A stretch of 60,272 bases of DNA, counting the filler. It is 4 parts of 4 records of this genome, joined end to end, with 100 filler letters (N's around TTAATTAATTAA, not from the genome) between each part and the next. Parts side by side here need not be neighbours in the genome. Positions count along the whole stretch, not along the records: positions 53,170 to 60,272 come from DRR723986_10618; 3 more parts are not named here. One strand, given 5' to 3'. Below, in pieces: positions 6,776 through 60,272 of this stretch. Under the pieces are notes generated by a model that saw nothing but the letters and a program-made list of their open reading frames with translations, ran no database searches and was not told the DNA's origin. Positions within the stretch are counted from its first letter, which is position 1; each line of letters starts with the position of its first letter. The position numbers were made by a program, and so were the translations under genes.

Positions 6776-7148
6776 TTTTTGGGCGCGCCGCAGTTGCAAC
6801 GCTCCGTTCTCGTCTCCGTACATCGCCCCATCCCACCAACCCGAAATACCTACAGTCATGCACTTCTGGGCGGATCCAGAGTTGTTATGCACGGAAAATT
6901 ACAGCCATTTTTGTTTATCGCTATGCATAGCTTCTTTTACTTCTGATCCTACGCCTATATTTTATTGTCGTTTTCTGCTGGTTGGAATAAAATGTATATT
7001 GAGTGCTTCGGTCTCCTCTAAGAAAAGGAAACTGATCGAAGAAGAACGGCCTTGGTGCGCCGGTATGTTGTGCTGCAAACGCAAGGCTGCACACCAGAGT
7101 TGATTCGTTCAGCTTGTGCACAAGAATTCTGCCTTATTGGAGTGATAA

Positions 7149-9506
7149 ATGTCCAAGTCGAAATGTATGATCTTGTGTTTGATGAATTTGTGTTTCCTAT
7201 TCGCCGGCACAGAAGTTAAAGCGCAAGAGCCTGGATTTCTGTATGGTTTTGAACGCGAAACAGTTGTAGATCCTGAAACAAATGACTCCAGGGTTGTTGT
7301 CTCCTTCGGCCGCTTTAATCCTTTGACCGGCGAAGCCGAAACCCTGGCAGAAGATGTGACCTACCCTTTCTCGACCAATAAAGCTGTCATAGACCGCCGC
7401 CGAGGACACTACTGTTACGTAACGTCCCAACGCAAGTTAGTACGAATAGATTTAACGAATGGACAGCTGGTTTCAATTACTGATGTACAACTTCAGTTTG
7501 CTGATAAGTTGCAAAACCGCAATTATTTTAACCTACGCTACTCTTACAAGGCCGATGAGTTTTATACTATGTATAGTTACCTTGATCATCCGCAAGCTGA
7601 TTGGCCCAAGGTGAATTTTGTAAAGATTGATGCAAGCGATTTTAGCATCTCGGAAAGCTTGTGGCTCAATTTGGGAGATTATAGTTTTCATGATGCTAGC
7701 TTGTTTTTCGAGTGCGGTTGGACGGTGGACGAAGACAATGGATGGTTGCTGGTTGCCGGTCTGGTTAGTAGTTTGCTTAAAAGAGATATTGCAACATTGC
7801 AACCAATTGGTAGTGTCAATATTCAGGGCGGTGATTTTCGCGATATTCACTATAACGTCCATGATCAAAAGCTCTATTTGTTTTACCTTGGCCTGAACAG
7901 CATTGATCTTGTTGCCAACCGCGCTGAGACTGTGGAAGTCAAATGGGACCCGAGTCTGGGACGAGCCAAGCCCTGCGGTCCTGGGTTGGACGAGATAGGC
8001 CGCAAATTCTATCGAGTATTTGAAAATGGAGAGCTTGCGCTTATTGATTTTGGTGGCAACATAGTGTCAATCATCGCCGAGAGCGAATTCCGATTCAGTT
8101 TTAACGCGACGGCCTACAACCCAATGTTAACAACCCGGCAGCTTTCCGGCCGCGTAGTTGCTGACTCGAATAATGACTGCATAGCTGGACCTGAAGAACT
8201 TCCACTACTTAACAGAACGGTCTTTTTCCGGCCTGGCAATCAACAGGCAAATACCGACGAGAATGGTCGCTTTGTTGTAAACCTCTTGCCTGGGGAGTAC
8301 ACCGTTGAGTTTTCCGATTCAGACCTGTGGGCCTCTGCGTGCAATGACGAGTTGCTGACCATTACTGTCACCGAAAATGCAATTTTAGATGCAGATGGGA
8401 ATCCGATCGATGCAGTTGAGTATGTGTTGCAGGCAGATGAAGAAATTTCCAGATTAAATGTTGATGTCCTCGCCGGTGTTCCACGTCCAGGTTTTGAGCA
8501 GGAGTACATCATAGCATATTCCAACTCCGGGACTGTGCCCTTCTCTGGGTCGGTAGTATTTAAACCAGATAATCTGTTAACAGATTTTAGCGCAACTACG
8601 ACACCTGACTTGTCTGCCCAGGATAGATATGAGTGGTTCGTAGAAGATTTACCGGTCGGGACTCGGGGCCGTCTGGTAATTACGATGCAGTTGACACCGG
8701 ATGAGGCTCTACTCGGCCAGGAATTGTGTGCCGAAGCTTTTGCGCTTGACCAAAATAAAGAAGAGCTGTCCTGGGAAACGCATGCTGAAGCGTGTGCCGT
8801 AATTGTCGGTTCCTACGACCCAAACAGCATCAGTGTGACGCCACGTGGCATTGGTGAGTCTGGCGCAATAACCATTTCCGATTCTGTGTTAACGTACACG
8901 GTTCATTTTCAGAATGAAGGCACTGCTTCGGCTGTTAACGTGCGCGTACGCTGTGTACTTAATGCGAACCTGGATGTTGAACACTTACAGTTTGGTGCTG
9001 CTACGCACCCCTATTCCGTTTCCGCACTTGACGAACGCACAATTGAATTTGAATTTGTGGACATCAATTTACCCCATAAAGAATTGGATGAAGCCGCCAG
9101 CCAGGGGAGTGTTCAGTTCAAAGTTAAGCTAAAACAAGAGCTGCAAAAAGGCGACGAGATACGGCAGATAGCCTTAATATACTTTGATTTTAATTCACCA
9201 ATTTTTACCAATGTTGCGCTTAATACCATTGCTGAACCCACAACGCACGTTTCGTCTGAGCTGCCGGCGCCGAAGGTGAATTTGTTGTATAGGCCCGATT
9301 CCAACGAGCTTCAAATTACATCTGACGGCCTGCTAAATGGTAATGTCAGTATCGTTTCAGTCCGCGGTTTGACAGTTGTGCAAGAAGAGTTTATACATGC
9401 AAGAGGACAATCACTAAACCTTGCCGGATTGAGTAGCGGCATTTATTTTGTGATGTTTGAATCAAACGGTATACAAAAAGTAGAGTCAATTAACATTGTT
9501 CGTTAA
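7149..9506 (+). CDS. Secreted protein with N-terminal propeller-like region, Ig-like modules and T9SS type A-like C-terminal domain
   Basis: Signal peptide; G.V..DSNNDC and TDENGRF (SdrD/CnaB-like); RPGF..Y.I.YSN.GT; GSYDPN...YTVHFQNEGT..A..V...IYFDFNSPIFTN module typical of Bacteroidota T9SS cargo; ends NLAGLSSGIYFV...INIVR. Confidence 0.85.
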   Translation: MSKSKCMILCLMNLCFLFAGTEVKAQEPGFLYGFERETVVDPETNDSRVVVSFGRFNPLTGEAETLAEDVTYPFSTNKAVIDRRRGHYCYVTSQRKLVRIDLTNGQLVSITDVQLQFADKLQNRNYFNLRYSYKADEFYTMYSYLDHPQADWPKVNFVKIDASDFSISESLWLNLGDYSFHDASLFFECGWTVDEDNGWLLVAGLVSSLLKRDIATLQPIGSVNIQGGDFRDIHYNVHDQKLYLFYLGLNSIDLVANRAETVEVKWDPSLGRAKPCGPGLDEIGRKFYRVFENGELALIDFGGNIVSIIAESEFRFSFNATAYNPMLTTRQLSGRVVADSNNDCIAGPEELPLLNRTVFFRPGNQQANTDENGRFVVNLLPGEYTVEFSDSDLWASACNDELLTITVTENAILDADGNPIDAVEYVLQADEEISRLNVDVLAGVPRPGFEQEYIIAYSNSGTVPFSGSVVFKPDNLLTDFSATTTPDLSAQDRYEWFVEDLPVGTRGRLVITMQLTPDEALLGQELCAEAFALDQNKEELSWETHAEACAVIVGSYDPNSISVTPRGIGESGAITISDSVLTYTVHFQNEGTASAVNVRVRCVLNANLDVEHLQFGAATHPYSVSALDERTIEFEFVDINLPHKELDEAASQGSVQFKVKLKQELQKGDEIRQIALIYFDFNSPIFTNVALNTIAEPTTHVSSELPAPKVNLLYRPDSNELQITSDGLLNGNVSIVSVRGLTVVQEEFIHARGQSLNLAGLSSGIYFVMFESNGIQKVESINIVR

Positions 9507-9667
9507 ACAGAATCAGCTGTTTAAGTTGTAGATGCCCTTCTGATTTGACTTTACAACTTCCTTGAGCGCTTCGCCCCTTTATGAAAAGTGGCTTGCTGGT
9601 TCTTTTTGTTTGTCTCTGAGACCAAAATGTTAAACAGTGTAGTCTGTCTCCGATCAGAAATAGACCA

Positions 9668-9692
9668 AGCTGTTAGCCTAAGGCTAACAGCT
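9668..9692. repeat. Perfect inverted repeat (12-bp arms, 1-nt centre) between convergent genes
   Basis: AGCTGTTAGCCT-A-AGGCTAACAGCT read directly. Confidence 0.8.
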
Positions 9693-9720
9693 ATGTGATT
9701 TTGAATTCCAACTGTGAAAT

Positions 9721-11271
9721 TTAACCCTCTCCACTCTCAGCCAGCGCACTCCTATCCACAAAACGATTCACACCGCCAGACCAGGTGCCGAGGACTTTAG
9801 CTTGGGTGATCTCCGCATCCGGACATGTTAACAGATTGCGATCGTGAATCACAAAGTCGGCGTCGAACTTTTCTTTGAGTTTGCCGCGCCGGTAAGTCAT
9901 ATCGGCTGCAGCGTGGCCCCACTCGGTATATGCCAGCAGCGCTTCTTCGCGCGTGATACATTCCTGCGCGTTCCATGATTCGGATTCTCCGAAAGGAATG
10001 CGGCGCACAAATGCGTCAATTCCAATCAGCGGATTCGGTGATTCAATCGGTGCGTCCGAGCCGCCCGCCAATATCGCACCGTTGTTGCGCAGGCTGCGCC
10101 AGGGATAGGCAAACTCACAGCGTGCACCCAAACGTGCGCGCGCCATCGGCGCGTCGGACACACAATGTGAGGCCTGTACTGCCGGAATGATTCCGAGCTT
10201 GCCGATGCGCTCCTGATCCGCCGGCTGCACGATCTGTGCATGTTCGATACGCAGGATCGTCTGCTCGTCCGCCAGGTGATCGCGTCGAGCAACTTCATAA
10301 GCGTCAATCACGGCGCGATTGGCAGCATCACCAATTGCGTGGATGCTGACGTTCCAGCCAAATTCCAGAATATTTTTGACTTTAGTCAGAATCTCGGCCG
10401 GTGTTAACAGTGCCAGTCCGCGCGTGTCGGGCGCGTCGCTGTACGGATCAAGTAGTTCAGCACCGCGCGAACCCAGGGCGCCGTCCGCATAAAGTTTAAC
10501 AGCGTAGACGCGCAGGAACTCGCCACCGGCAGGCAGCAGGCGTTCATGCAGCCATTCGTTGTTTTGTCCGCTGATATGCGATTGCACACGCACGGCCAGG
10601 CGGCCGCGCTCGGCCAATTCTCTGAAGTGATCGAGCATCGATGGATGCACATCCATGTCGTGCACTTCGGTAACGCCGTGGCGTGCATACTCGCTTGCCG
10701 CAGCTTCTATGTTGCGGCGCATTTGTTCGGGGCTGGGGGTGGGCATCAGGTTCAGGACCAGCTCCATCGCATTGTCTACCAGGATTCCAGTTGCCTGTTT
10801 TTTGTCGTCGCGCACAATCACACCACCGGGAGGGTCGGGCGTTTCAGCTGTAATGCCGGCGCGCTCCAGCGCCTTGGAGTTAACCCAGATCGCGTGCCCG
10901 TCGGCGCGGCGGAACACCACCGGCCTGTCCGCAAAAGCCTCGTCCAGCGGAGCTTTGGTCGGCATCGCTGAATCATTCCACTTCTCCTGATTCCAGCCCA
11001 TTCCAAAGAGCCATTCACCATCGTTAAGGTGGTCCAGGCCCGCCTGAACACATTCGTCGGAGCTGGTGCAGTCGTACAGGCGCAAGCCCAACAGCCGCTG
11101 CCCCAGGCCATGCAGGTGTGCATGCGACTCAACCAGGCCGGGCATCACCCATGCATCGCGGAAGTGATGAATCTTATCGCGTTCATCCACAATCGTAACA
11201 CCACCAAACTGAGGCTCAATCTTTTGAATGCGGCCGCCGGCGATTTTGATTCGTGCTTGCATTACCTGCAT
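9721..11271 (-). CDS. Amidohydrolase 3 family (YtcJ-like) metal-dependent hydrolase
   Basis: PGLVESHAHL, DGHAIWVNSKAL, KLYADGALGSRGA, HAIGD, RIEHAQ, GGSDAP. Confidence 0.92.
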   Translation of the reverse strand: MQVMQARIKIAGGRIQKIEPQFGGVTIVDERDKIHHFRDAWVMPGLVESHAHLHGLGQRLLGLRLYDCTSSDECVQAGLDHLNDGEWLFGMGWNQEKWNDSAMPTKAPLDEAFADRPVVFRRADGHAIWVNSKALERAGITAETPDPPGGVIVRDDKKQATGILVDNAMELVLNLMPTPSPEQMRRNIEAAASEYARHGVTEVHDMDVHPSMLDHFRELAERGRLAVRVQSHISGQNNEWLHERLLPAGGEFLRVYAVKLYADGALGSRGAELLDPYSDAPDTRGLALLTPAEILTKVKNILEFGWNVSIHAIGDAANRAVIDAYEVARRDHLADEQTILRIEHAQIVQPADQERIGKLGIIPAVQASHCVSDAPMARARLGARCEFAYPWRSLRNNGAILAGGSDAPIESPNPLIGIDAFVRRIPFGESESWNAQECITREEALLAYTEWGHAAADMTYRRGKLKEKFDADFVIHDRNLLTCPDAEITQAKVLGTWSGGVNRFVDRSALAESGEG

Positions 11272-17617: not shown

Positions 17618-17717
17618 NNNNNNNNNNNNNNNNNNNNNNNNNNNNNNNNNNNNNNNNNNNNTTAATTAATTAANNNNNNNNNNNNNNNNNNNNNNNNNNN
17701 NNNNNNNNNNNNNNNNN
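17618..17717. other. Artificial contig spacer
   Basis: 44 N + TTAATTAATTAA (stops in all six frames) + 44 N. Confidence 0.99.
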
Positions 17718-29354: not shown

Positions 29355-29454
29355 NNNNNNNNNNNNNNNNNNNNNNNNNNNNNNNNNNNNNNNNNNNNTT
29401 AATTAATTAANNNNNNNNNNNNNNNNNNNNNNNNNNNNNNNNNNNNNNNNNNNN
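29355..29454. other. Artificial contig spacer
   Basis: 44 N + TTAATTAATTAA + 44 N. Confidence 0.99.
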
Positions 29455-51702: not shown

Positions 51703-53069
51703 ATGAGCAAAACACGGAAAAAGAGCGACACTACCGCAACCGATGCGGGTCAGGAAGTCGCCAACGACGATTCAGCAGCCAAGAAAACAACAAGCAAACG
51801 AACAACCAGCAAGCGCACACCAGCCAAGAAGGCGGCGGGAACGACTACGAGACGTTCTACTCGCAAAAGTGCAGCGTCGGCAGAGGAAGCCGAAGCCACA
51901 CCGCCCAAAAAGCGCAAAGCGCCTGCTAAAGCTGCTCCCAAAGCCAAAGCGGCTACACGCAAGGCACCTGCCAAATCGCGTGCAACTGCTAAAAAGGATG
52001 TGAAAGCCGCAGAGCCTACGCAGGACGATCTGTTCACTGCTGATGCTGCTGCCGAAGAAACACCGGCTCCCAAAGCCAAACGTGCGCCGCGCAAAAAAGC
52101 TGCCGCCGCACCAAAAGCTACGCGAGCTAAAGCGAAACCAAAAGCCAAAGCTGCCAAAGCCGCGCCGGCCGAAGCGGATGTGGAGACTCAGGAAACTGAA
52201 GAAACACCCGCTCCAAAGGCCAAACGCGCCCCACGCAAAGCTGCAAGCCCCAAACGCACAACGCGGACTACAAAAGCCAAGGCTGCCGCAGAGCCGGACA
52301 TAGAGGCCGCCAGTGATGAGGCGGACGAAGCACCTGCACCGAAAACACGTGCAAGCTCGCGAACCAGCACGCGCGCCAAAGCTGCGCCGAAAGTCAAAAC
52401 TACACGCAGCAAGTCCGAAACGGCGGACCAGGAGCAGGCTGAGCAGGAGGATACTCCCGCAAGGTCTTCCGGCCGCGCCAGACCAAAAGCCAAAGCCGCG
52501 CCGAAAACTCCGAGCAAATCTACGGGTCGGCATTCCTCTGCCGCACGTCGTAATGAAGAAGCCGCCGAAGATGAACGTTATCGCGATGAAGACCTGCAGG
52601 ATGACTCCGTGCAGGATGAACGTTCCGAGGAATCGGATTCCAAACGCGAAAAATCTGGACGCGGCAGCCGCTCCGGTTCACGTGGACGTGGACGTTCGGG
52701 CCGCGGCCGTTCTCAGGCTGACGACAACTATTACACAGACGACGAGCAAGACGACGTAGACGATCGTGGCCGTGACGAGCGCGAGGACGAGCGTGACGAT
52801 CGCCGTGAATCCGGACGTGGACAGTCAAAAACGCGCCGTGGAGGCCGCCGTTCCGACAGCCGCCGCCGTGATGACAGGCGCGATGACCGTCGTGACGATG
52901 AGCGTGACGACCGTCGAGAAGAAGAGCGCGATGATCGCCGTGACGACCGCCGAGATGATCGTCGCTACCGCGATGACGAAGAGCGCGACGATCGCCGTGA
53001 CGATGAACGTGACGAGCGCGATGATCGTCGTGGTTCCGTTCGTGGGCAGTCGAAGTCACGCCGTGGAGG
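51703..53069 (+). CDS. N-terminal low-complexity region (K/A/R/P-rich, then R/D/E-rich) of a protein truncated by the contig end
   Basis: Open frame of about 455 codons from ATG 51703 to the gap with no folded domain visible; internal repeats ETPAPKAKRAPRK x2, RDDRR x many, RGQSK.RRG x2. Confidence 0.8.
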
Positions 53070-53169
53070 NNNNNNNNNNNNNNNNNNNNNNNNNNNNNNN
53101 NNNNNNNNNNNNNTTAATTAATTAANNNNNNNNNNNNNNNNNNNNNNNNNNNNNNNNNNNNNNNNNNNN
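53070..53169. other. Artificial contig spacer
   Basis: 44 N + TTAATTAATTAA + 44 N. Confidence 0.99.
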
Positions 53170-53746
53170 ACCCGCTCACGGCAATTAGCACACAGCTGTT
53201 TTCCTCAAGCCGCCGCACCTGATGGCGAAGGGGGCCGGGAAACTGGACGGAATCGCCCTTGCCGAGGACAAGATTCTGGTCCGGAAAGCGGATCTCAACC
53301 TTGCCTGAGACGACGAAGAGCAGTTCCTCGCCCCTATGTTCGGCGTCCGGCTCGTCGGCGAGCTCGACCGGCGGATACATGAGGAAAACCTCGAGACCGG
53401 AACTCGTGTCGCTCTGGGTCAGAAGGCGCATGACATAGTTACCGTCGTCGGCGGTAAGCTCGTTGGCGTCTTCCGCACGGGTGACGAAAAGCAGATCATG
53501 GTTCTCGGCGGCGCCGAAAAGCTGTGCAGCGGACACTTCCAGAACCGTTGAGATACGCAGGATGATGGCGACCGACGGAACCTTGAGGCCACGCTCGACG
53601 CGAGAGAGATAACCCTTGTCGAGAGATGCTGCCAGTGCGAGTTGCGACAGAGACATGTCTTTCTCGGTCCGCATGGCACGGATCGCCCGACCCAGGCTGA
53701 CGCCTGCCGGAAAGTCCATTTTGCGGGCAGTACCCTTGAGTGCCAT
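53170..53746 (-). CDS. XRE-family HTH regulator with C-terminal cupin sensor (3' end at contig edge)
   Basis: IR.MR....MSL.QLA....LDKGYLSRVERG..VPS; cupin H.GEE..FV.SG...L..GDS..F....H. ATG 53746 with GGAGG RBS. Confidence 0.92.
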
Positions 53747-53887
53747 GTTCACCAACCTCCCAGTTCTGGCGAATTGTTCATCTCAAATCTCTCCCGTCAA
53801 CTGACTGTAGCGCCCGCAAACGCCGTCATCCAATACCTGATCAAACAGTCACGCAATCCAGCGTTGCCATGAATCAACGTTGTTTTT

Positions 53888-53902
53888 TTGTCTTATAGGC
53901 AA
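53888..53902. promoter_or_regulatory. Candidate operator 1 (TTGYCT-N3-AGRCAA)
   Basis: TTGTCT-TAT-AGGCAA in the divergent intergenic region. Confidence 0.55.
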
Positions 53903-54007
53903 AACACCTGGTTTCGTCCATAGTTGGATCAGTGGATTTCATCGCCTATTTATCTATGATGTTTATTTTTTCATCACTTCCGCACATATTTCGCGCATGC
54001 TGCATAA

Positions 54008-54031
54008 TTGCCTTTTAGACAACGTTGTCTA
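54008..54031. promoter_or_regulatory. Candidate operator 2 (TTGYCT-N3-AGRCAA plus adjoining half-site)
   Basis: TTGCCT-TTT-AGACAA (54008-54022) overlapping the perfect palindrome TAGACAACGTTGTCTA (54016-54031). Confidence 0.55.
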
Positions 54032-54063
54032 TCATCCACTTCATACAACAGAAGGGGACCATT

Positions 54064-55116
54064 ATGAAACTCACCAATCTGCTCTGCGCGACAGCCTTGA
54101 GCGTTGCGTCGGTTCTGCCGCTGGCATCCACCGCATTTGCGCAAGATGCTCCGGTCAAATGGAAGATGGCAGGGACGTTCTCAAGCTCCCTGCCGCAGCT
54201 CGGAACACTCGGCAAGCGCCTTGAGGAAAAGATCGCTGTAGTCTCCGGCGGCAAAATCGAGCTGCGCTTCTACGAACCCAATGCACTGGTGCCGCCCCTG
54301 GAAACCTTCGATGCTGTCTCGCTCGGGGCGGTGGATGCGGCATTTTCCACGCCAGGCTTCTGGGGTGGCAAGGTGCCGGCGCTGCAGGTATTTGCCGCGC
54401 TGCCGTTCGGCCCGTCGGCTCCGGAATACATGGCATGGTTTTATTTCGGTGGCGGCAAGGAGATCTTCGACGAGATCTACGGCAAATACGGAATCAAGTC
54501 GGTGATGTGCGGCATGCTGGCACCAGAAGGCTCCGGCTGGTTTCGCGAAGAGGTCAAGAGCGTCGACGACCTCAAAGGTATGAAGCTGCGCTTCTTCGGC
54601 CTTGGCGCCAAGGCGCTCGGCAAGTTTGGCGTCTCCGCCCAACTACTGGCAGCCCCCGATGTCTATCCCGCGCTTGATCGTGGAGTGATCGACGGCTTGG
54701 AATTCGTCCAACCAGCAATCGACCTGAAAATGGGCTTTTACCAGATCGCCAAACATTACTATTTCCCTGGATGGCATCAGCAGTCGACCTTCTTCGATCT
54801 GATGATGAACAAGGACAAGTGGGATGCGCTCAGCGAGACCCAGCAGGCCCAGATCGAAGCTGTCTGTGGTGACAACGTCCGTTATGGTATCGCGGAAGGC
54901 GAGGCCATCCAGATTCCCGCCCTCAAGGAGCTTCAGGAAAAGGGCGTCCAGATTCACAAGTGGTCCGATGAGGATCTTGCGAAGCTGAAAGGCGCTGTCG
55001 ATGAGGTTATTGCCGAACAGGTTGCGACCGATCCCGACTTCGCACGAGCCTACGAGAGCTTCTCTACGTTCCGGGAAGAATATACGACCTGGCGCGAAAT
55101 CGGGTACCTGAAGTAA
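54064..55116 (+). CDS. dctP: TRAP transporter substrate-binding protein (DctP, TakP/FcbT1-like)
   Basis: Signal peptide, V.WKMA, LVPPLE.FDAVS.G, PFGP, GWFR.E.KS.DDLKG.KLRFFGLG (conserved Arg), YYFPGWHQ. ATG 54064 with RBS. Confidence 0.94.
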   Translation: MKLTNLLCATALSVASVLPLASTAFAQDAPVKWKMAGTFSSSLPQLGTLGKRLEEKIAVVSGGKIELRFYEPNALVPPLETFDAVSLGAVDAAFSTPGFWGGKVPALQVFAALPFGPSAPEYMAWFYFGGGKEIFDEIYGKYGIKSVMCGMLAPEGSGWFREEVKSVDDLKGMKLRFFGLGAKALGKFGVSAQLLAAPDVYPALDRGVIDGLEFVQPAIDLKMGFYQIAKHYYFPGWHQQSTFFDLMMNKDKWDALSETQQAQIEAVCGDNVRYGIAEGEAIQIPALKELQEKGVQIHKWSDEDLAKLKGAVDEVIAEQVATDPDFARAYESFSTFREEYTTWREIGYLK

Positions 55117-55122
55117 CAAAAA

Positions 55123-55674
55123 ATGACCGCACTTCTGGCTTCTGCCCGTTTTCTCAAGGCGGTCGCGCGGCGTATCGGTCAGGTCTCTGCATGGCTCATC
55201 GTGCTTTTGATCCTGACCGTCGTCCTCGACGTGATCACCCGCCGCTTCGTGGTTCTCGGATCCACGAAGCTTCAGGATCTGGAGTGGCACTTTCATGCCG
55301 CCCTGTTTCTGCTGTCCCTCGGATATGCCTATGTCGAAGGTGAGCATGTCAGGATCGACGTCCTGCTTGAGCGCTTCGGCCTGAAAACCGCCGCGGCGAT
55401 CGAGTTTCTCGGCGCGGCCCTTTTTCTGGTGCCATTCTGCGTGATCGTACTCTACTTCGGCTGGACCTTTGTCGAACGGTCGTTTCTCCTCAGCGAAGGG
55501 TCCGCCACTCAGACAGGACTTCCGTACCGCTGGATCATCAAGACGTCCCTCCTGATAGGCTTCTTCACGCTGTTCCTTGCTGCGCTCGGTGTCATTGCGG
55601 ACAGTCTGGCAACGCTTCTTGGCGCCAAACGGAAACCGGGACCGAATACCCATTACGACGAGGTGGGGCTGTGA
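55123..55674 (+). CDS. dctQ: TRAP transporter small permease (DctQ)
   Basis: Four TMs, LQDLEWH, HVRID, SEGS...GLPYRW.IK. Confidence 0.93.
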   Translation: MTALLASARFLKAVARRIGQVSAWLIVLLILTVVLDVITRRFVVLGSTKLQDLEWHFHAALFLLSLGYAYVEGEHVRIDVLLERFGLKTAAAIEFLGAALFLVPFCVIVLYFGWTFVERSFLLSEGSATQTGLPYRWIIKTSLLIGFFTLFLAALGVIADSLATLLGAKRKPGPNTHYDEVGL

Positions 55675-57035
55675 CCGCATTCGAGACTGTGCTCCCTCTG
55701 ACAATGATGGGCATCCTCATCTTCATCCTGTTCACAGGCTATCCGGTGGCATTCTGCCTTGCCGGTGTCGGCCTGATGTTCACTGTCGTCGGCGGCATGT
55801 TTGACATGTTCCACCCGATGCAACTCTTCCTGATCGTCAGCCGCATCTGGGGCTCCATCGCGGAAAACCTGGTACTTGTCGCGATTCCCATGTTCATCTT
55901 CATGGGCATCATGCTTGAACGCAGCGGCGTTGCCCGCCATCTTCTGGAAATCCTGTCAGTTCTTCTCCGTCGGGTACCGGGCGGACTGGCCCTGGCGGTC
56001 GTTCTCATGGGGACGATCATGGCGGCAACCACCGGCATCGTCGGCGCCTCGGTGGTCATGCTGTCGCTTCTGGCCCTTCCGGTCATGATGGATCGGGACT
56101 ACGACAAGAAAATCACCGCAGGCGTCATTTCCGCGTCTGGCACACTTGGCATCCTCATTCCCCCGTCAATCATGCTTGTGATCATGGGCGACATGCTGGC
56201 CGTGCCGGTCGGTGATCTTTTTGCCGGGGCCGTCATCCCGGGCCTCGTCCTTTCCGGTCTCTACCTCGTCTACCTCGTCTTCATGGCAATGACCAAGCCC
56301 GAGCGCATGCCAAAGCTTGAGCAGAGCGACGCTGATGACGACCGGCCCTTGTTGGGGCTCATCCTGCGGGGCTTCCTGCCCCCCACGCTTCTCGTAGTGA
56401 TGGTTCTGGGCTCGATCATCGGCGGACTTGCAACGCCAACGGAAGCGGCCGGTGTCGGGGCTTTTGGCGCGACACTGCTAGCGGTCTACAACCGAACCTT
56501 CAGCCTGAGCCTGCTCCGGGACGTTGTCCGCGGAACCGCACTCACCAACGCCATGATCTTCGGCATTTTCTGCGGTGCGACGCTGTTTTCCTACGTCTTC
56601 CGCGAACTTGGTGGAGACGACGCTATCATCCACGTGATCGAGGTTCTGGACCTCCATGACTGGACGCTTCTGATCCTGCTTATGGCGATCATCTTCCTTT
56701 TGGGTTTCTTCTTCGACTGGCTTGAAATCACGCTGATCATCCTGCCGGTGTTTCGCCCGATCGTCATGTCGCTGGACCTCGGCAGCGCGGTTCCTACAGA
56801 CCATCTGCTGCTCTGGTTCGCAATTGCCGTCGCGGTCAATCTGCAGACTTCCTACCTGACGCCGCCTTTCGGCCCCGCGCTCTTCTATCTGCGTCAGGCT
56901 GGGCAGGGGTATCTGTCGCTCGGTGACATCTACAAGGGCGTTATTCCCTTCACGCTTCTGCAGCTCACCGGACTGGTTCTGTGCCTGCTGTTCCCCGCAC
57001 TCGTTCTCTGGCTGCCGAACTACCTCGGCTACTGA
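55671..57035 (+). CDS. dctM: TRAP transporter large permease (DctM)
   Basis: GYPVAF, AIPMFIFMG, GTLGILIPPSI, ATPTEAAGVG, NLQTSYLTPPFG; GTGA overlap with dctQ stop. Confidence 0.96.
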   Translation: MTAFETVLPLTMMGILIFILFTGYPVAFCLAGVGLMFTVVGGMFDMFHPMQLFLIVSRIWGSIAENLVLVAIPMFIFMGIMLERSGVARHLLEILSVLLRRVPGGLALAVVLMGTIMAATTGIVGASVVMLSLLALPVMMDRDYDKKITAGVISASGTLGILIPPSIMLVIMGDMLAVPVGDLFAGAVIPGLVLSGLYLVYLVFMAMTKPERMPKLEQSDADDDRPLLGLILRGFLPPTLLVVMVLGSIIGGLATPTEAAGVGAFGATLLAVYNRTFSLSLLRDVVRGTALTNAMIFGIFCGATLFSYVFRELGGDDAIIHVIEVLDLHDWTLLILLMAIIFLLGFFFDWLEITLIILPVFRPIVMSLDLGSAVPTDHLLLWFAIAVAVNLQTSYLTPPFGPALFYLRQAGQGYLSLGDIYKGVIPFTLLQLTGLVLCLLFPALVLWLPNYLGY

Positions 57036-57078
57036 GCCAGACATCGGACAACCCTAACAACGTCAAGAGAGGAAACTC

Positions 57079-57462
57079 ATGTCCCGCACCGTAATCGCAC
57101 CACCGTCTCTGACAGCTCCCGGCGTGCCTCTGTCTCCGGGCATTGCTTTGGAAAATCTCGTCTTCGTCTCCGGGCAACTCCCGGTCGACACCGAAACGGG
57201 CTCCTTTCCCGAGGGTGTTGCTGCGCAGACAAAGGCATCACTGGCGAACCTGAAAACCGTTCTGGAAGCTGCCGGTGCCAGCATGGGAGGCGTCGTCAAG
57301 ACAACGGTCTTTCTGAAAGACATGAATGATTTTGCAGCCATGAACGCGGTTTATGCGGAGGCTTTTCCAAGCGAACCGCCAGCTCGTTCGGCCATCGAAG
57401 TCGCTCGTCTTCCCAAAGACGCACTCGTTGAAATCGAAGCCGTCGCCATTCGTACGCGTTGA
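57079..57462 (+). CDS. RidA/YjgF family enamine/imine deaminase
   Basis: VFVSGQLP, VVKTTVFLKDMNDFAAMN.VY..F, PARS (catalytic Arg), LP..ALVEIE. Confidence 0.95.
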   Translation: MSRTVIAPPSLTAPGVPLSPGIALENLVFVSGQLPVDTETGSFPEGVAAQTKASLANLKTVLEAAGASMGGVVKTTVFLKDMNDFAAMNAVYAEAFPSEPPARSAIEVARLPKDALVEIEAVAIRTR

Positions 57463-57471
57463 GTTTGAGCC

Positions 57472-58038
57472 ATGACAGACCAAATACCCGAAATGACCGC
57501 AGCCTTCGACCACCCGGCGGCAAAAGCCGCCCTTGAAACCGAAGGCGGCACGACCGACTGGAAGGGCGTGTTGCTGCACATCCATATCGCGCCGATGGCA
57601 AGTTTCGAAATGGAGGAACTCCCCGAGGCGGAATGCGTTCCTGGCCGCGGCATCGTTGGAGACAGGTACTATCTCGGCACAGGCACCTATTCTCCCCGTC
57701 CGGATGTGCGTGAAGTGACGTTGATCGAGCAGGAAGCACTTGATGCGATAGCCCGGAACGACCCCCCGCTTCAGGAAGGTCCCATCGAACTGAAACCTAT
57801 CGATCACCGACGAAACCTGACCGTGCGCGGTGTACCGCTCAATCACCTGGTTGGCCGCAGGTTCCGCGTCGGGGAGGTTATCCTGCGCGGCGGGCGACTG
57901 AACTTTCCGTGTAAATACCTGGAAAACCTGTTGGATTTCCCAGTTTTCCTCCCGCTCTACAACCGCTCGGGCCTGAACTGCGGCATCGAAAAAGGGGGGA
58001 CCATCCGCCCAGGCGACGAAATCGAGCTAATGGACTGA
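57472..58038 (+). CDS. Stand-alone MOSC domain protein (putative molybdenum-cofactor enzyme)
   Basis: GRGIVGDRY, REVTLIE.E, RRNL.VRGV.LN.LVGRRFRVGEV, PC (conserved Cys), GG.IRPGD. Confidence 0.92.
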   Translation: MTDQIPEMTAAFDHPAAKAALETEGGTTDWKGVLLHIHIAPMASFEMEELPEAECVPGRGIVGDRYYLGTGTYSPRPDVREVTLIEQEALDAIARNDPPLQEGPIELKPIDHRRNLTVRGVPLNHLVGRRFRVGEVILRGGRLNFPCKYLENLLDFPVFLPLYNRSGLNCGIEKGGTIRPGDEIELMD

Positions 58039-58042
58039 ACCC

Positions 58043-58990
58043 ATGGCAGACCGCTTGATCATGAAACTCTCGGTCCGCGATGTGCGGACCGAAACACGGG
58101 ATGTTATTGTTATAAACTTCTTGCACCCACGACGGCCGGAGCTCCCGGCGTGGAGCGCGGGTGCACATGTCGACGTACATCTGCCAGACGGTTCAGTTCG
58201 GCAGTACTCGCTGTGTGGTGACCCGAAGGACAGGTCAGTTTACACGATCGCAGTAAAGCGGGAAGCGGACAGCCGCGGTGGATCGGCATGGCTTCACGAC
58301 AATGCAGTTGCAGGATTGGGACTTCAAGTCTCCGCGCCAAGGAACCATTTCGATTTCGATCCGGAAAGGGGGCGTCACGTTCTCGTCGCAGGTGGGATAG
58401 GCATCACGCCGTTCGTGCCGATGGTCAGTCAGCTTGTGGAAACAGGCCAGGACTTTGTTCTCCATTATTGCATGCGAAGCCGGGTAACAGCACCGCTCGT
58501 CACGGAACTCGAGGAGATCTGCGGGGCAAAGCTCCGTTGTTGGATTTCAGAGGAGGGGACCCGACTGGACGTAGCAACGCTTCTTTCTGCTGAAGGGAAT
58601 TCCGAACTTTATGTCTGCGGGCCACTTAAACTGATTTCGGCCGTCGAGGATGCGGCGCTGCACGCCAACTGGCCGGAAGAACGCCTCCACATGGAACGTT
58701 TCACAGCTCTTGAGGACGGCGATTTCCAGCCCGAGCCATTTGACGTCGTAATCGCGTCAACTGGCAAGGAGTTCGAAGTACCGGCGGACAGGAGCCTGCT
58801 CTCGGTTCTGCACGAGAACGGATTTGCTATCCAGTCCACCTGCGAGACCGGTGTCTGCGGCACCTGCGAATGCAAGTATCTCGAGGGAACGGTTCAGCAT
58901 CGCGATGTCGTGTTGACACCTCAGAAGCGGAAATCAAAGTTGATGGCTTGTGTCTCCAGGGGAACAGGAACACTGGTGCTGGATCTCTGA
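58043..58990 (+). CDS. PDR/VanB family flavin + [2Fe-2S] oxidoreductase
   Basis: GAHVD, RQYSL, SRGGS, AGGIGITP, YVCGP, ERF, CETGVCGTC…C plant-type [2Fe-2S] motif. Confidence 0.95.
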   Translation: MADRLIMKLSVRDVRTETRDVIVINFLHPRRPELPAWSAGAHVDVHLPDGSVRQYSLCGDPKDRSVYTIAVKREADSRGGSAWLHDNAVAGLGLQVSAPRNHFDFDPERGRHVLVAGGIGITPFVPMVSQLVETGQDFVLHYCMRSRVTAPLVTELEEICGAKLRCWISEEGTRLDVATLLSAEGNSELYVCGPLKLISAVEDAALHANWPEERLHMERFTALEDGDFQPEPFDVVIASTGKEFEVPADRSLLSVLHENGFAIQSTCETGVCGTCECKYLEGTVQHRDVVLTPQKRKSKLMACVSRGTGTLVLDL

Positions 58991-59059
58991 TCCGTGAAGC
59001 GGGAGAATAATTTTCTCCCACTGAAGTGGTCCGCCGTTATGTTTAGGAAAACGGAGGGT

Positions 59060-59350
59060 AATCTCCGGCCATCGTTGGCGCAAGTGACGGCGACCATCTT
59101 GCTTTCGACCCGATGCACGATGTGACCAATCATTTGCAACAGGGCATTGAGCGCGGTCATTTCAGGGCGAAAAAGAACATGCTGAAGGTCGGCTGGTTCC
59201 GCTCGTTCAACTCAGTCAGAAAATGCGTCGCTGGTTTTGAAGCCATGCTTAAGCTCAAGAAGAGTTTCGGCTTTTATGGTCACGGGTGTGTCCGCCAACA
59301 AAACGATCTGCTGGCGATGCCCTCGGGGAATGCAAAAGTTAACGAAAGTT
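59060..59350 (+). mobile_element. Degenerate IS6-family transposase C-terminal remnant
   Basis: VTNHLQQGIERGHFRAKKNM.KVG.FRSFNS.R…AGFEAML.LKK.FGF.G…V.QQNDLLA resembles the C-terminus of alphaproteobacterial IS6 transposases; the N-terminal part is missing and no intact terminal repeat is seen. Confidence 0.75.
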
Positions 59351-59558
59351 TCGACAGGTCCGTTGATTTCCATGCAGAACTGAGTCCGCCTATACTGTGA
59401 AAAGGCCGAGTTTGTTTGCAAGAAAAAAGGGCAGCTAGGAATTAGGATATTGTGGTTGATGTTTGTAGCGACGCGGACTGATCCGCGGCTCGAATTTCTT
59501 TCAAACGGCCGCACTGTGAACAAACCGGACTTGCTCCGGTCTGTCCATCGTAGTTTCC

Positions 59559-60272
59559 CTACAGCTGAATTAATCCAAGAGCTTTGACTACTTCGTGCTT
59601 TGTGGTTTCTGTGCGATCACGTGCACGTCTGGTCCCCCGTCGAATAATCTCCACGACGTGACTTCGATCTTTGGCTAGTTGTTCGCGGCGTTCACGGATC
59701 GGGGCAAGAAGCGCCTGCAATTTCTCTTCCAGCCGCTTCTTGATGTTCCCATCACCGAGCCCACCGCGTTGGTAATGGGCTTTGATCTCATCCAGTCCCT
59801 GTTCGTCGTCATCAAAAGCGTCAAGATAAGCGAATACGACATTACCCTCGACCTTCCCAGGATCCTCGACGCGCAAGTGGTTCGGGTCAGTGAACATAGC
59901 CCGCACAGCCGCACGGATTGCATCAGGTGAGGCGGAAAGCGGAATGGCATTGCCCCCGGATTTTGACATTTTGCTTGTTCCGTCAATACCCGGCAGTCTC
60001 CCGCTTCTGGGTATGACAGCCTGCGCTTCGGGGAGAACGTCGACGCCGGCGGTAGCATTTATTCGGCGTACGATCTCGTTAGTTTGCTCAATGAGCGGCG
60101 CCTGGTCCTCTCCCACAGGCACAACGGTTGCGCGGAACGCAGTGATATCGGCCGCTTGAGCTGCAGGATAGCAGAGGAAGCCGGCGGGAATGTCCCGACC
60201 GAAACCGCGTGACCGGATCTCGTCCTTAATGGTTGGGTTTCTTTCCAGACGCGAGACGGTAACAAAATTCAG
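59559..60272 (-). CDS. trpS: Tryptophanyl-tRNA synthetase (3' part; runs off the window)
   Basis: RLERNPTIKDEI, YPAAQAADI, VPVGEDQ, KMSKS, MFTDPNH, HYQRGGLGD. The frame is open to 60272. Confidence 0.96.
   Translation of the reverse strand: MNFVTVSRLERNPTIKDEIRSRGFGRDIPAGFLCYPAAQAADITAFRATVVPVGEDQAPLIEQTNEIVRRINATAGVDVLPEAQAVIPRSGRLPGIDGTSKMSKSGGNAIPLSASPDAIRAAVRAMFTDPNHLRVEDPGKVEGNVVFAYLDAFDDDEQGLDEIKAHYQRGGLGDGNIKKRLEEKLQALLAPIRERREQLAKDRSHVVEIIRRGTRRARDRTETTKHEVVKALGLIQL

Follow-up and report, generated by a model that had tools for sequence, protein, structure and literature searches.

What is a stand-alone MOSC protein doing inside an operon that also encodes an importer and an imine-hydrolysing enzyme? 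The question is raised by six genes at positions 54064-58990 of a stretch of DNA of 60,272 nucleotides (the whole of which we call the window). They encode the three components of a tripartite ATP-independent periplasmic (TRAP) transporter, a RidA deaminase, the MOSC protein and a reductase of the phthalate dioxygenase reductase (PDR)/VanB type, next to a gene for an XRE-cupin regulator. A preliminary description of the window had proposed that they form a pathway for the uptake and reductive deamination of an N-oxygenated acid. We found that the cluster is a real conserved functional unit, with a core made of the MOSC protein and the reductase and an importer that is swappable, either a TRAP system or a transporter of the major facilitator superfamily (MFS).

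A conserved core with a swappable importer

All six open reading frames (ORFs) lie on the plus strand and follow one another with gaps of 6, -4, 43, 9 and 4 nt, the start of dctM overlapping the stop of dctQ by 4 nt. The preliminary description had given the same tightly spaced and co-oriented genes at the same coordinates, and had been right as well about the lack of a Rieske oxygenase gene in the operon and about the upstream XRE-cupin regulator, which is a divergent gene with the Pfam domains HTH_3 and Cupin_2. The parts of the unit are the following.

53170-53746, minus strand: XRE-cupin transcriptional regulator, 3' end cut (Pfam HTH_3 E 6.7e-10, Cupin_2 E 2.9e-10)
53888-53902, no strand: distal operator-like palindrome TTGTC-N5-GGCAA (pattern TTGYY-N5-GRCAA and alignment)
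54008-54031, no strand: proximal operator-like element TTGCCTTTTAGACAACGTTGTCTA, overlapping a promoter-like site at 54008-54035
54064-55116, plus strand: TakP-family TRAP solute-binding protein DctP, with signal peptide (Pfam DctP E 1e-43)
55123-55674, plus strand: TRAP small permease DctQ (Pfam DctQ E 1e-16)
55671-57035, plus strand: TRAP large permease DctM (Pfam DctM E 1.9e-68; TIGR00786 293.1 against a cut-off of 268.45)
57079-57462, plus strand: canonical RidA imine/enamine deaminase (Pfam Ribonuc_L-PSP E 1.6e-38; TIGR00004)
57472-58038, plus strand: stand-alone YuaD-type MOSC protein, 188 aa, putative molybdenum-cofactor reductase subunit (Pfam MOSC)
58043-58990, plus strand: PDR/VanB-type reductase, 315 aa, putative electron donor to the MOSC protein (Pfam Fer2 and NAD_binding_1)

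The MOSC protein was used as query against one genome per species, which gave 199 stretches with a relative. The best 80 of these (74-94% identity) were analysed and searched with the seven proteins of the window plus an MFS transporter and a DJ-1-like protein taken from the loci themselves; the counts that follow refer to these 80 loci. The reductase gene was found directly downstream of the MOSC gene, on the same strand, in 78 loci from many genera (the two others are L071 and L079). The MOSC protein is the most conserved of the unit, and the reductase is kept beside it although only 49-70% identical across the loci, which places the arrangement far beyond chance. RidA was found within 6 kb of the MOSC gene in 59 loci, in 53 of them directly upstream, and an XRE-cupin gene was nearby in 66. 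An importer was nearby in 69 loci, an MFS transporter in 55 and DctP in 14 (DctM in 13 and DctQ in 12). The six-gene cluster of the preliminary description is thus conserved in its MOSC-reductase core, while the TRAP genes are not part of that core and most loci have an MFS importer instead. A DJ-1/PfpI protein, a feature not mentioned in that description, was found in 38 loci.

The commonest layouts were MFS, DJ-1, RidA, reductase and regulator (25 loci), the same without DJ-1 (15 loci), and TRAP, RidA, reductase and regulator (12 loci). The TRAP layout is found in Stappiaceae, Xanthobacter, Ancylobacter, Aurantimonas, Jiella and Hoeflea, and the MFS layout in Bradyrhizobium, Methylobacterium, Bosea, Chelatococcus, Azospirillum and others. 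Other neighbours (a short-chain dehydrogenase/reductase, an ABC ATPase, an aldehyde dehydrogenase, SBP_bac_3) were sporadic, each in at most 10 loci, and were not counted as parts.

The proteins of the unit and its putative operators

The MOSC protein has a single domain, which matches Pfam PF03473 with 36.3 bits against a cut-off of 22.7 (E 6.2e-9, residues 80-185), and its AlphaFold2 model (pLDDT 89.7) has the MOSC beta-barrel fold. The top Foldseek match of this model was Bacillus subtilis YuaD (1oru; E 1.4e-10, TM 0.68/0.71, 21% identity over 183 columns), and further matches were YiiM (1o65, 5yhi, 5yhh) and human mARC1 (6fw2), all of them, 1oru included, with a probability of 1.00; the mARC1 match spans 142-144 columns of 444 residues, with a TM of 0.43-0.44 on the query. 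A phmmer search against the PDB chains gave no match, to YuaD or any other. The protein ends at residue 188, just past the barrel, and by Pfam and the model it has no C-terminal 3-alpha helical bundle as in YiiM; by Pfam it also has neither the MOSC_N domain of YcbX and mARC nor the Fer2 domain of YcbX. For lack of the helical bundle and of MOSC_N we assign it to the stand-alone YuaD type, of which it also has the size (ca. 180-190 aa), the MOSC domain alone and the fold nearest to 1oru. The MOSC protein, which the preliminary description had likened to YiiM, YcbX and mARC, is thus of another type.

Residues D64, R113, C147 and G167 are invariant in 64 MOSC sequences, and several arginines are invariant or nearly so in the same set. 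In a profile match that is weak (E 0.71), the QPRQPC motif of gsYiiM (5yhh) has its cysteine opposite C147, and this cysteine (C119 in gsYiiM, C120 in ecYiiM) is given as invariant throughout the MOSC family in PMC5818509. All MOSC proteins assayed to date had N-reductive activity by the account in PMC10637980, which names oximes, amidoximes, hydroxylamines, hydroxamic acids and N-hydroxyguanidines as substrates of mARC-type enzymes. The Moco (molybdenum cofactor) genes MoeA and MoaE were present in all three cluster-carrying genomes searched for them, and three such genomes hold 2-4 MOSC paralogues each.

More distant relatives of the MOSC protein (40-56% identity) are fused to QueG-like Fe-S, FGE-sulfatase, DsbA, AhpC, SnoaL, NUDIX or PNPOx domains; deducing a substrate from these partners was given up, as they are too varied. 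The MOSC genes of Rhizobium, Mesorhizobium and Sinorhizobium plasmids (ca. 60-69% identity) were likewise set aside as a different branch. In the one that we inspected (L082, R. leguminosarum pRltTA1A, 7047-10579) no reductase is annotated beside the ca. 60% identical MOSC paralogue, which adjoins a MocR-type regulator ("PLP-dependent aminotransferase family") and a divergent PLP-dependent transferase, an arrangement that may be common on clover-rhizobium plasmids.

The best PDB matches of the reductase were the reductase domain of a P450 fusion (6laa, E 9.9e-75) and phthalate dioxygenase reductase (2pia, E 4.6e-55, residues 8-315). R53-Q-Y55-S56, G117-G-I-G-x-T-P and the cysteines C267, C272, C275 and C303 are invariant in 33 sequences. 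We take these to be the RxYS flavin site, the GGxGxxP NAD site and the C-terminal plant-type 2Fe-2S Cys4 motif, respectively. Their succession, flavin site, NAD site and C-terminal 2Fe-2S, is the domain order of class IA PDR/VanB reductases. Across the loci the reductase starts 3-25 nt past the MOSC gene, and this constant position suggests that it feeds the MOSC protein. A complex prediction for the two proteins, run without supplied alignments, gave a score of 0.02 (mark 0.34), which speaks neither for nor against the pairing. In the plasmid NZ_CP128603.1 a later start is annotated for the reductase, yet the full frame of 315 codons is open there.

Two Roseibium lineages, that of the window and L001, can be compared along the whole unit. 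The reductase gene (compared at 58167-58966 of the window) has 60-74% DNA and 70% protein identity to that of L001, and the rest of the unit about 84-93% DNA and 90-96% protein identity; either faster evolution or an old recombination tract would account for this divergence.

RidA is of the canonical type (TIGR00004 134.8 bits against a cut-off of 106.25; E 1.2e-33 to E. coli YjgF, 1qu9). In all 56 sequences compared, Arg103 of the PAR motif is unchanged, so that the conserved arginine of the preliminary description holds; we take it to be the substrate-carboxylate arginine, Arg105 in enteric RidA. The DJ-1 protein of other loci (e.g., L016 6918-7538) has isocyanide hydratase as its best solved relative (E 6.2e-14) and keeps D15 and the nucleophile elbow S-V-C101-T102-G across 39 sequences, residues that presumably resemble the catalytic Asp17, Cys101 and Thr102 of isocyanide hydratase.

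Concerning the importers, the nearest solved relative of DctP is TakP (2hzk, E 5.5e-60, ca. 32% identity), as the preliminary description had it. The DctP model (pLDDT 72) superposes on 2hzk with a TM of 0.83/0.86, on a Synechococcus receptor with alpha-ketovalerate and calcium (7ug8) with a TM of 0.80-0.82, and also on the lactate-calcium receptor 2zzv; these nearest solved relatives (2hzl, 7ug8, 2zzv) hold alpha-keto or alpha-hydroxy acids together with a cation. The sodium-pyruvate site of TakP consists of Arg177, Tyr100, Gln156, Glu214, Trp215 and Glu240 (PMC1839085), which in a hand-mapped alignment correspond to R176, F99, E155, E213, F214 and Q239 of DctP, all six of them invariant in 13 of 13 orthologues. 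With R176, E155, E213 and Q239 the carboxylate clamp and the three-oxygen cation site are kept, Gln and Glu being exchanged.

The MFS transporters of the other loci are metabolite/H+ symporters (TIGR00883 428-433 bits) that come nearest to the model of the shikimate transporter ShiA, with 406-410 bits against its cut-off of 538. In the Acetobacteraceae Rhodovarius and Belnapia (L058 9613-10749 and L066 ca. 9659-10750) a much closer TakP relative (E 9.6e-123), with the TakP-like Q/E/E set, is encoded after the reductase gene, the order being DJ-1, regulator, MOSC, reductase, DctP; no DctQ or DctM gene comes next after this DctP, and in L058 the next ORF is GlmU-like. Judged by their relatives, all three importer types point to a small carboxylate, and the two TakP-type proteins point to a 2-substituted monocarboxylate.

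The regulator of the window is 96% identical to that of L001. Its identity as an XRE-cupin protein agrees with the preliminary description; its likely start is ATG 53746 rather than TTG 53755, and its 3' end is cut by a contig join. It is not PuuR itself, as it scored 38.9 bits with the PuuR model NF007408 against a cut-off of 211. All eight TRAP-type intergenic regions that were aligned, which represent at least six genera, have the block GCAACGTTGTCTA without variation. It sits inside a TTGYY-N5-GRCAA palindrome ca. 35-55 nt before dctP, and in the window a promoter-like TTGCCT-16-TATCAT overlaps this proximal element. A second palindrome lies ca. 120 bp upstream of the proximal one in seven TRAP-type loci (L001, L002, L003, L009, L010, L012 and the window). 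We infer from this arrangement that the palindromes are putative operators of the XRE-cupin regulator. TTGYY-N5-GRCAA was not found before the cluster in the MFS-type loci, whose XRE-cupin proteins are 22-37% identical to the regulator of the window, and for both reasons we regard these regulators as analogous rather than orthologous.

A candidate reaction and its rivals

From the gene content, the conservation, the folds and the key residues we infer a cofactor, an electron path and a substrate. We think it rather probable that some kind of N-oxygenated acid is imported and then reduced by the MOSC protein and the reductase together. The full chain would be the inducible import of a 2-substituted monocarboxylate, an NADH-driven reduction of its N-O bond and the hydrolysis of the resulting imine by RidA; for all three steps together we would put the chances a little below even. 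The module would then be a self-contained, ligand-induced unit for catabolism or salvage. The XRE-cupin regulator would bind both TTGYY-N5-GRCAA palindromes, the proximal of which overlaps the putative promoter of dctP, and would be released when its cupin domain takes up a ligand, substrate or product. The TakP-family TRAP system would bring in a small monocarboxylate, the carboxylate pairing with Arg176, and Glu155, Glu213 and Gln239 binding a cation together with the substituent on C2; a ShiA-like MFS symporter would replace this system in most other genera. Electrons would pass from NAD(P)H to the flavin of the reductase, from there to its 2Fe-2S cluster and on to the Moco held at Cys147 of the YuaD-type MOSC protein, where the N-O bond would be cleaved in a two-electron reduction, and RidA would hydrolyse the 2-imino acid to a 2-oxo acid and ammonia.

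The substrates that best fit such a chain are 2-(hydroxyimino) acids, e.g., the hydroxylamine oximes of pyruvate, glyoxylate or longer 2-oxo acids, for which the net reaction would be oxime + NAD(P)H + H+ + H2O -> 2-oxo acid + NH3 + NAD(P)+ + H2O. They fit best because the step from oxime to imine is the only one among the known MOSC reactions that yields a RidA substrate, and because the arginine of RidA and the TakP-type site both require a carboxylate beside the reacting carbon. It is thus RidA plus the TakP-like importer that suggests an oxime. We also considered 3-nitropropionate, N-hydroxypipecolate, canavanine or hydroxyguanidine, isoxazolinone amino acids and sulfoxides. The more general proposal, that YuaD-type MOSC proteins, each served by a private PDR-type reductase, act as catabolic oxime reductases on imported 2-oximino acids and yield keto acid and ammonia, is tentative.

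Several points weigh against an oxime route. A DJ-1/isocyanide-hydratase-like enzyme with an invariant Cys101 is present in nearly half of the loci and has no role in it. In 21 of the 80 loci no RidA was found close to the MOSC gene, although 13 of the 80 have short flanks, and truncation may explain some of the absences noted in this sample. The counts cover the best 80 of 199 relatives. The similarity of the MOSC protein to YiiM is marginal (E 0.71 for the 64-sequence profile against gsYiiM), and for the YuaD type PMC5818509 reports neither activity nor Moco binding and treats YuaD as uncharacterised. Finally, the TakP contacts Tyr100 and Trp215 are both Phe in the 13 DctP orthologues, and the imported compound could be an ordinary keto acid, given that the nearest characterised relatives of DctP bind plain 2-oxo acids.

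In one alternative the same pair of enzymes salvages N-hydroxy amino acids, hydroxamates or hydroxylamino acids, e.g., plant N-hydroxy acids or the degradation products of hydroxamate siderophores. The MOSC protein would then give an amine or amide, the DJ-1-like enzyme would hydrolyse the amide and RidA would clear side products. Hydroxylamines, hydroxamic acids and N-hydroxyguanidines are among the mARC-type substrates named above (PMC10637980), the DJ-1/PfpI protein with its invariant nucleophile-elbow cysteine would find a function, and RidA would be as dispensable as it is in the loci that lack it. However, RidA is more constant than DJ-1 (59 against 38 loci) and mostly directly upstream of the MOSC gene, none of the 12 full TRAP-type loci showed a DJ-1 gene, such reductions give no imine, and the cation site of the TakP type is better suited to a small monocarboxylate with a lone-pair donor on C2. 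On balance we regard this salvage as unlikely, though it deserves to be kept in mind.

An equally unlikely alternative is that the MOSC protein and the reductase carry out a chemistry other than N-O cleavage (reduction of an S-oxide or peroxide, sulfur transfer or another) on an imported 2-oxo-acid-like compound, as YuaD-type proteins may perhaps not be Moco N-reductases. The uncharacterised state of YuaD in PMC5818509 leaves room for this, and the very different fusion partners of the relatives at 40-56% identity imply varied chemistry within the branch. Against it stand the cysteine and the arginines of the MOSC protein, invariant or nearly so, the N-reduction found with every MOSC domain assayed according to PMC10637980, and the linkage to RidA, which suggests an imine or enamine product.

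Detoxification, in which the pair would remove mutagenic N-hydroxylated bases or hydroxylamine as YcbX and YiiM do in E. coli and the transporter would be incidental, has in its favour that it is the sole physiological role shown for bacterial MOSC proteins in the accounts of PMC10637980 and PMC5818509. Yet TRAP systems and metabolite/H+ symporters are importers, and here they are in a conserved order with the enzymes under a ligand-sensing regulator; besides, the module is patchy and often plasmid-borne (see below), and the same genomes hold other MOSC paralogues. Detoxification seems to us quite improbable.

The preliminary description had named homologous clusters with a Rieske oxygenase, lost here at an IS6 scar, as an observation that would speak against it, and PDR/VanB reductases usually serve oxygenases. 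Among 4585 ORFs around the 80 loci a Rieske-type CxH...CxxH motif was found in five, scattered over five loci, with no recurring oxygenase, and the genes past the reductase in L001 are purU and sarcosine-oxidase-like genes on the opposite strand; for these two reasons the idea of a lost oxygenase is close to excluded. That the reductase is the donor of a Rieske or P450 oxygenase lost here, e.g., at the IS6 remnant after the operon, and is only by accident adjacent to the MOSC gene, agrees with the usual role of such reductases, with its best PDB matches and with the remnant, but is made very improbable by the MOSC-reductase adjacency in 78 of the 80 loci with no oxygenase recurring and by the complete plasmid NZ_CP128603.1, which has the same trpS after the operon. 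The evidence supports a reductase that is the dedicated neighbour of the MOSC protein and not the orphaned partner of an oxygenase.

Plasmid setting, known systems and significance

The contig with the operon is ca. 98% identical, in the parts compared, to the plasmid NZ_CP128603.1 of Roseibium aggregatum S1616 (348.7 kb), and the MOSC protein is 98.4% identical to its counterpart there. In this lineage the unit is plasmid-borne. On the plasmid a gene for a BCCT transporter precedes the regulator, and the tract at 58991-59560 of the window (IS6 remnant and the end of trpS) is 94.6% identical. The current annotation is generic, "MOSC domain-containing protein" and "PDR/VanB family oxidoreductase". 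The features of the window past the operon are the following.

59001-59019, plus strand: 7-bp hairpin GGGAGAA-TAATT-TTCTCCC, without T tract, directly past the operon (sequence inspection)
59113-59400, plus strand: remnant, the 3' end of an IS6-family transposase gene (NCBIfam NF033587 E 9.2e-5)
59559-60272, minus strand: tryptophan-tRNA ligase gene, trpS (also at L081 14087-15088)

This trpS is presumably a second, plasmid-borne copy. The IS6 scar of the preliminary description is there as a remnant of that family, by a weak match that reaches only the last 48 positions of the model (155-202 of 202); its DNA is ca. 71% identical to annotated IS6 transposase genes.

The window itself is a scaffold of at least four contigs, and neighbourhoods that span the joins are artificial. 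Spacers of the form N44-TTAATTAATTAA-N44, which are six-frame stop linkers, are found at 17618-17717, 29355-29454 and 53070-53169. The last of these joins removes the final few codons of the XRE-cupin regulator, and because of it the genes left of 53070 are not true neighbours of the operon. The match to L001 spans 53170-58993 of the window only, ending 3 nt past the stop of the reductase gene. Sharp cassette borders on both sides were rejected, as the left one is an artefact of the scaffold join; the right border is real.

On the far side of the join there is a long ORF at 51703-53069 (plus strand, 472 aa as listed), the end of which runs into the join. It is very low in complexity and charged, rich in Lys, Ala and Pro in the first half and with Arg-Asp/Glu repeats in the second, and had no match in Pfam or NCBIfam. 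A separate contig (48338-51147) encodes a Peptidase_S51 domain protein of 633 aa and, after it, a TPR protein of 279 aa, both unrelated to the operon.

Of 401 genomes sampled from the class, 3 had an orthologue of the MOSC protein (E 1e-50 or better), as did 6 of 132 from the family. A relative at E 1e-40 or better is present in 53 plasmid records, among them Methylobacterium megaplasmids with the full MFS-type cluster. The unit is thus a patchy accessory one of Alphaproteobacteria from soils, plants and the sea, and is often plasmid-borne. The stretch was also present in five sequencing runs, of which four are labelled RNA; as sets of contigs they show only the existence of a strain with ca. 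74 differences in 5.2 kb, and not transcription or co-transcription. The RNA-labelled metatranscriptomic runs X1, X2 and X4 (53800-59000 of the window) gave contigs of up to 79 kb, and one contig of 22 kb spans the whole operon at flat depth; long contigs and flat depth over the operon indicate that these libraries seem to contain genomic DNA.

Among known systems, E. coli YcbX (with CysJ) and YiiM share with the protein described here the MOSC beta-barrel, the invariant cysteine and the expected two-electron reduction of an N-O bond fed by flavin and Fe-S carriers. YcbX has a Fer2 domain of its own and CysJ as its partner, and the electron partner of YiiM is given as unknown in PMC5818509, whereas here a dedicated PDR-type reductase is encoded next to a stand-alone MOSC protein of 188 aa; the embedding of the latter in an operon with importer, RidA and regulator implies nutrient use rather than detoxification. 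B. subtilis YuaD is the best structural match and has the same stand-alone architecture, but it has no known function, partner or context. The chain from mARC through cytochrome b5 to cytochrome b5 reductase is similar in taking electrons from NADH over a carrier to a MOSC molybdoenzyme; mARC, however, has MOSC_N and a haem carrier, and here a single FMN/2Fe-2S protein would make the transfer. A precedent for the pairing exists in fusions of a YiiM-like MOSC protein with flavin and 2Fe-2S domains, e.g., UniProt Q89NR8 (PMC10637980), in which both functions are in one unit. As that source describes them, these are fused, of the YiiM type with its 3-alpha domain and without an experimental study, while here there are two genes and a YuaD-type MOSC protein.

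On the uptake side, TakPQM of Rhodobacter sphaeroides (2hzk/2hzl) has the closest solved relative of DctP, with the carboxylate arginine and the cation site; DctP differs by the swapped Gln/Glu pair of that site (E155, Q239) and by Phe in the place of Tyr100 and Trp215, at ca. 32% identity. The physiological ligand of TakP itself is described as unknown in PMC1839085. In Hcp-Hcr, too, the products of two genes reduce N-O bonds with NADH, and Hcr is the flavin/2Fe-2S oxidoreductase of the two; the catalytic partner there is the hybrid-cluster protein and not a MOSC protein, and our reductase scored 89.5 bits with the Hcr model NF007964, far below the cut-off of 383. Pyruvic oxime dioxygenase (POD) of heterotrophic nitrifiers acts on pyruvic oxime and regenerates pyruvate. 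As its literature presents it, POD is an Fe(II) dioxygenase similar to class II aldolases that releases nitrite, whereas the route proposed here would be reductive, Mo-dependent and ammonia-releasing; no POD-like gene was seen in the cluster, though no search was aimed at it.

What we came across of the literature on pyruvic oxime concerns the dioxygenase route, and enzymatic oxime reduction appears in PMC9942197 as a recently found side activity of ene-reductases. The preliminary description knew of no account of this system, and our literature search, which left subscription journals mostly outside, found none either, nor one of a dedicated bacterial oxime reductase. The evidence partly supports a system in which a mobile operon for nutrient uptake includes a MOSC protein, of the proposed N-reductive type, together with a reductase dedicated to it. 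In nature 2-oximino acids would form from keto acids and the hydroxylamine that leaks from nitrifiers and other ammonia oxidisers, and those using them would be heterotrophic Alphaproteobacteria of soil, leaf, nodule and sea.

One module here unites a MOSC enzyme, its own reductase, an importer, a product-handling enzyme and a sensor, and as such it is a concrete and conserved test case in Bradyrhizobium, Methylobacterium, Xanthobacter, Azospirillum, Stappia/Roseibium and others. Bacterial MOSC enzymes are otherwise known only as detoxifiers of N-hydroxylated bases. If the proposal is true, the YuaD branch of the MOSC proteins would have its first physiological role, and a small bacterial MOSC enzyme its first dedicated electron donor. 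Should the substrate prove to be an oxime or another N-oxygenated acid related to it, such compounds would be nutrients for these bacteria, with a reductive route beside that of the dioxygenase. It would be the Mo-dependent, ammonia-yielding counterpart of POD and an unrecognised return path in the nitrogen cycle.

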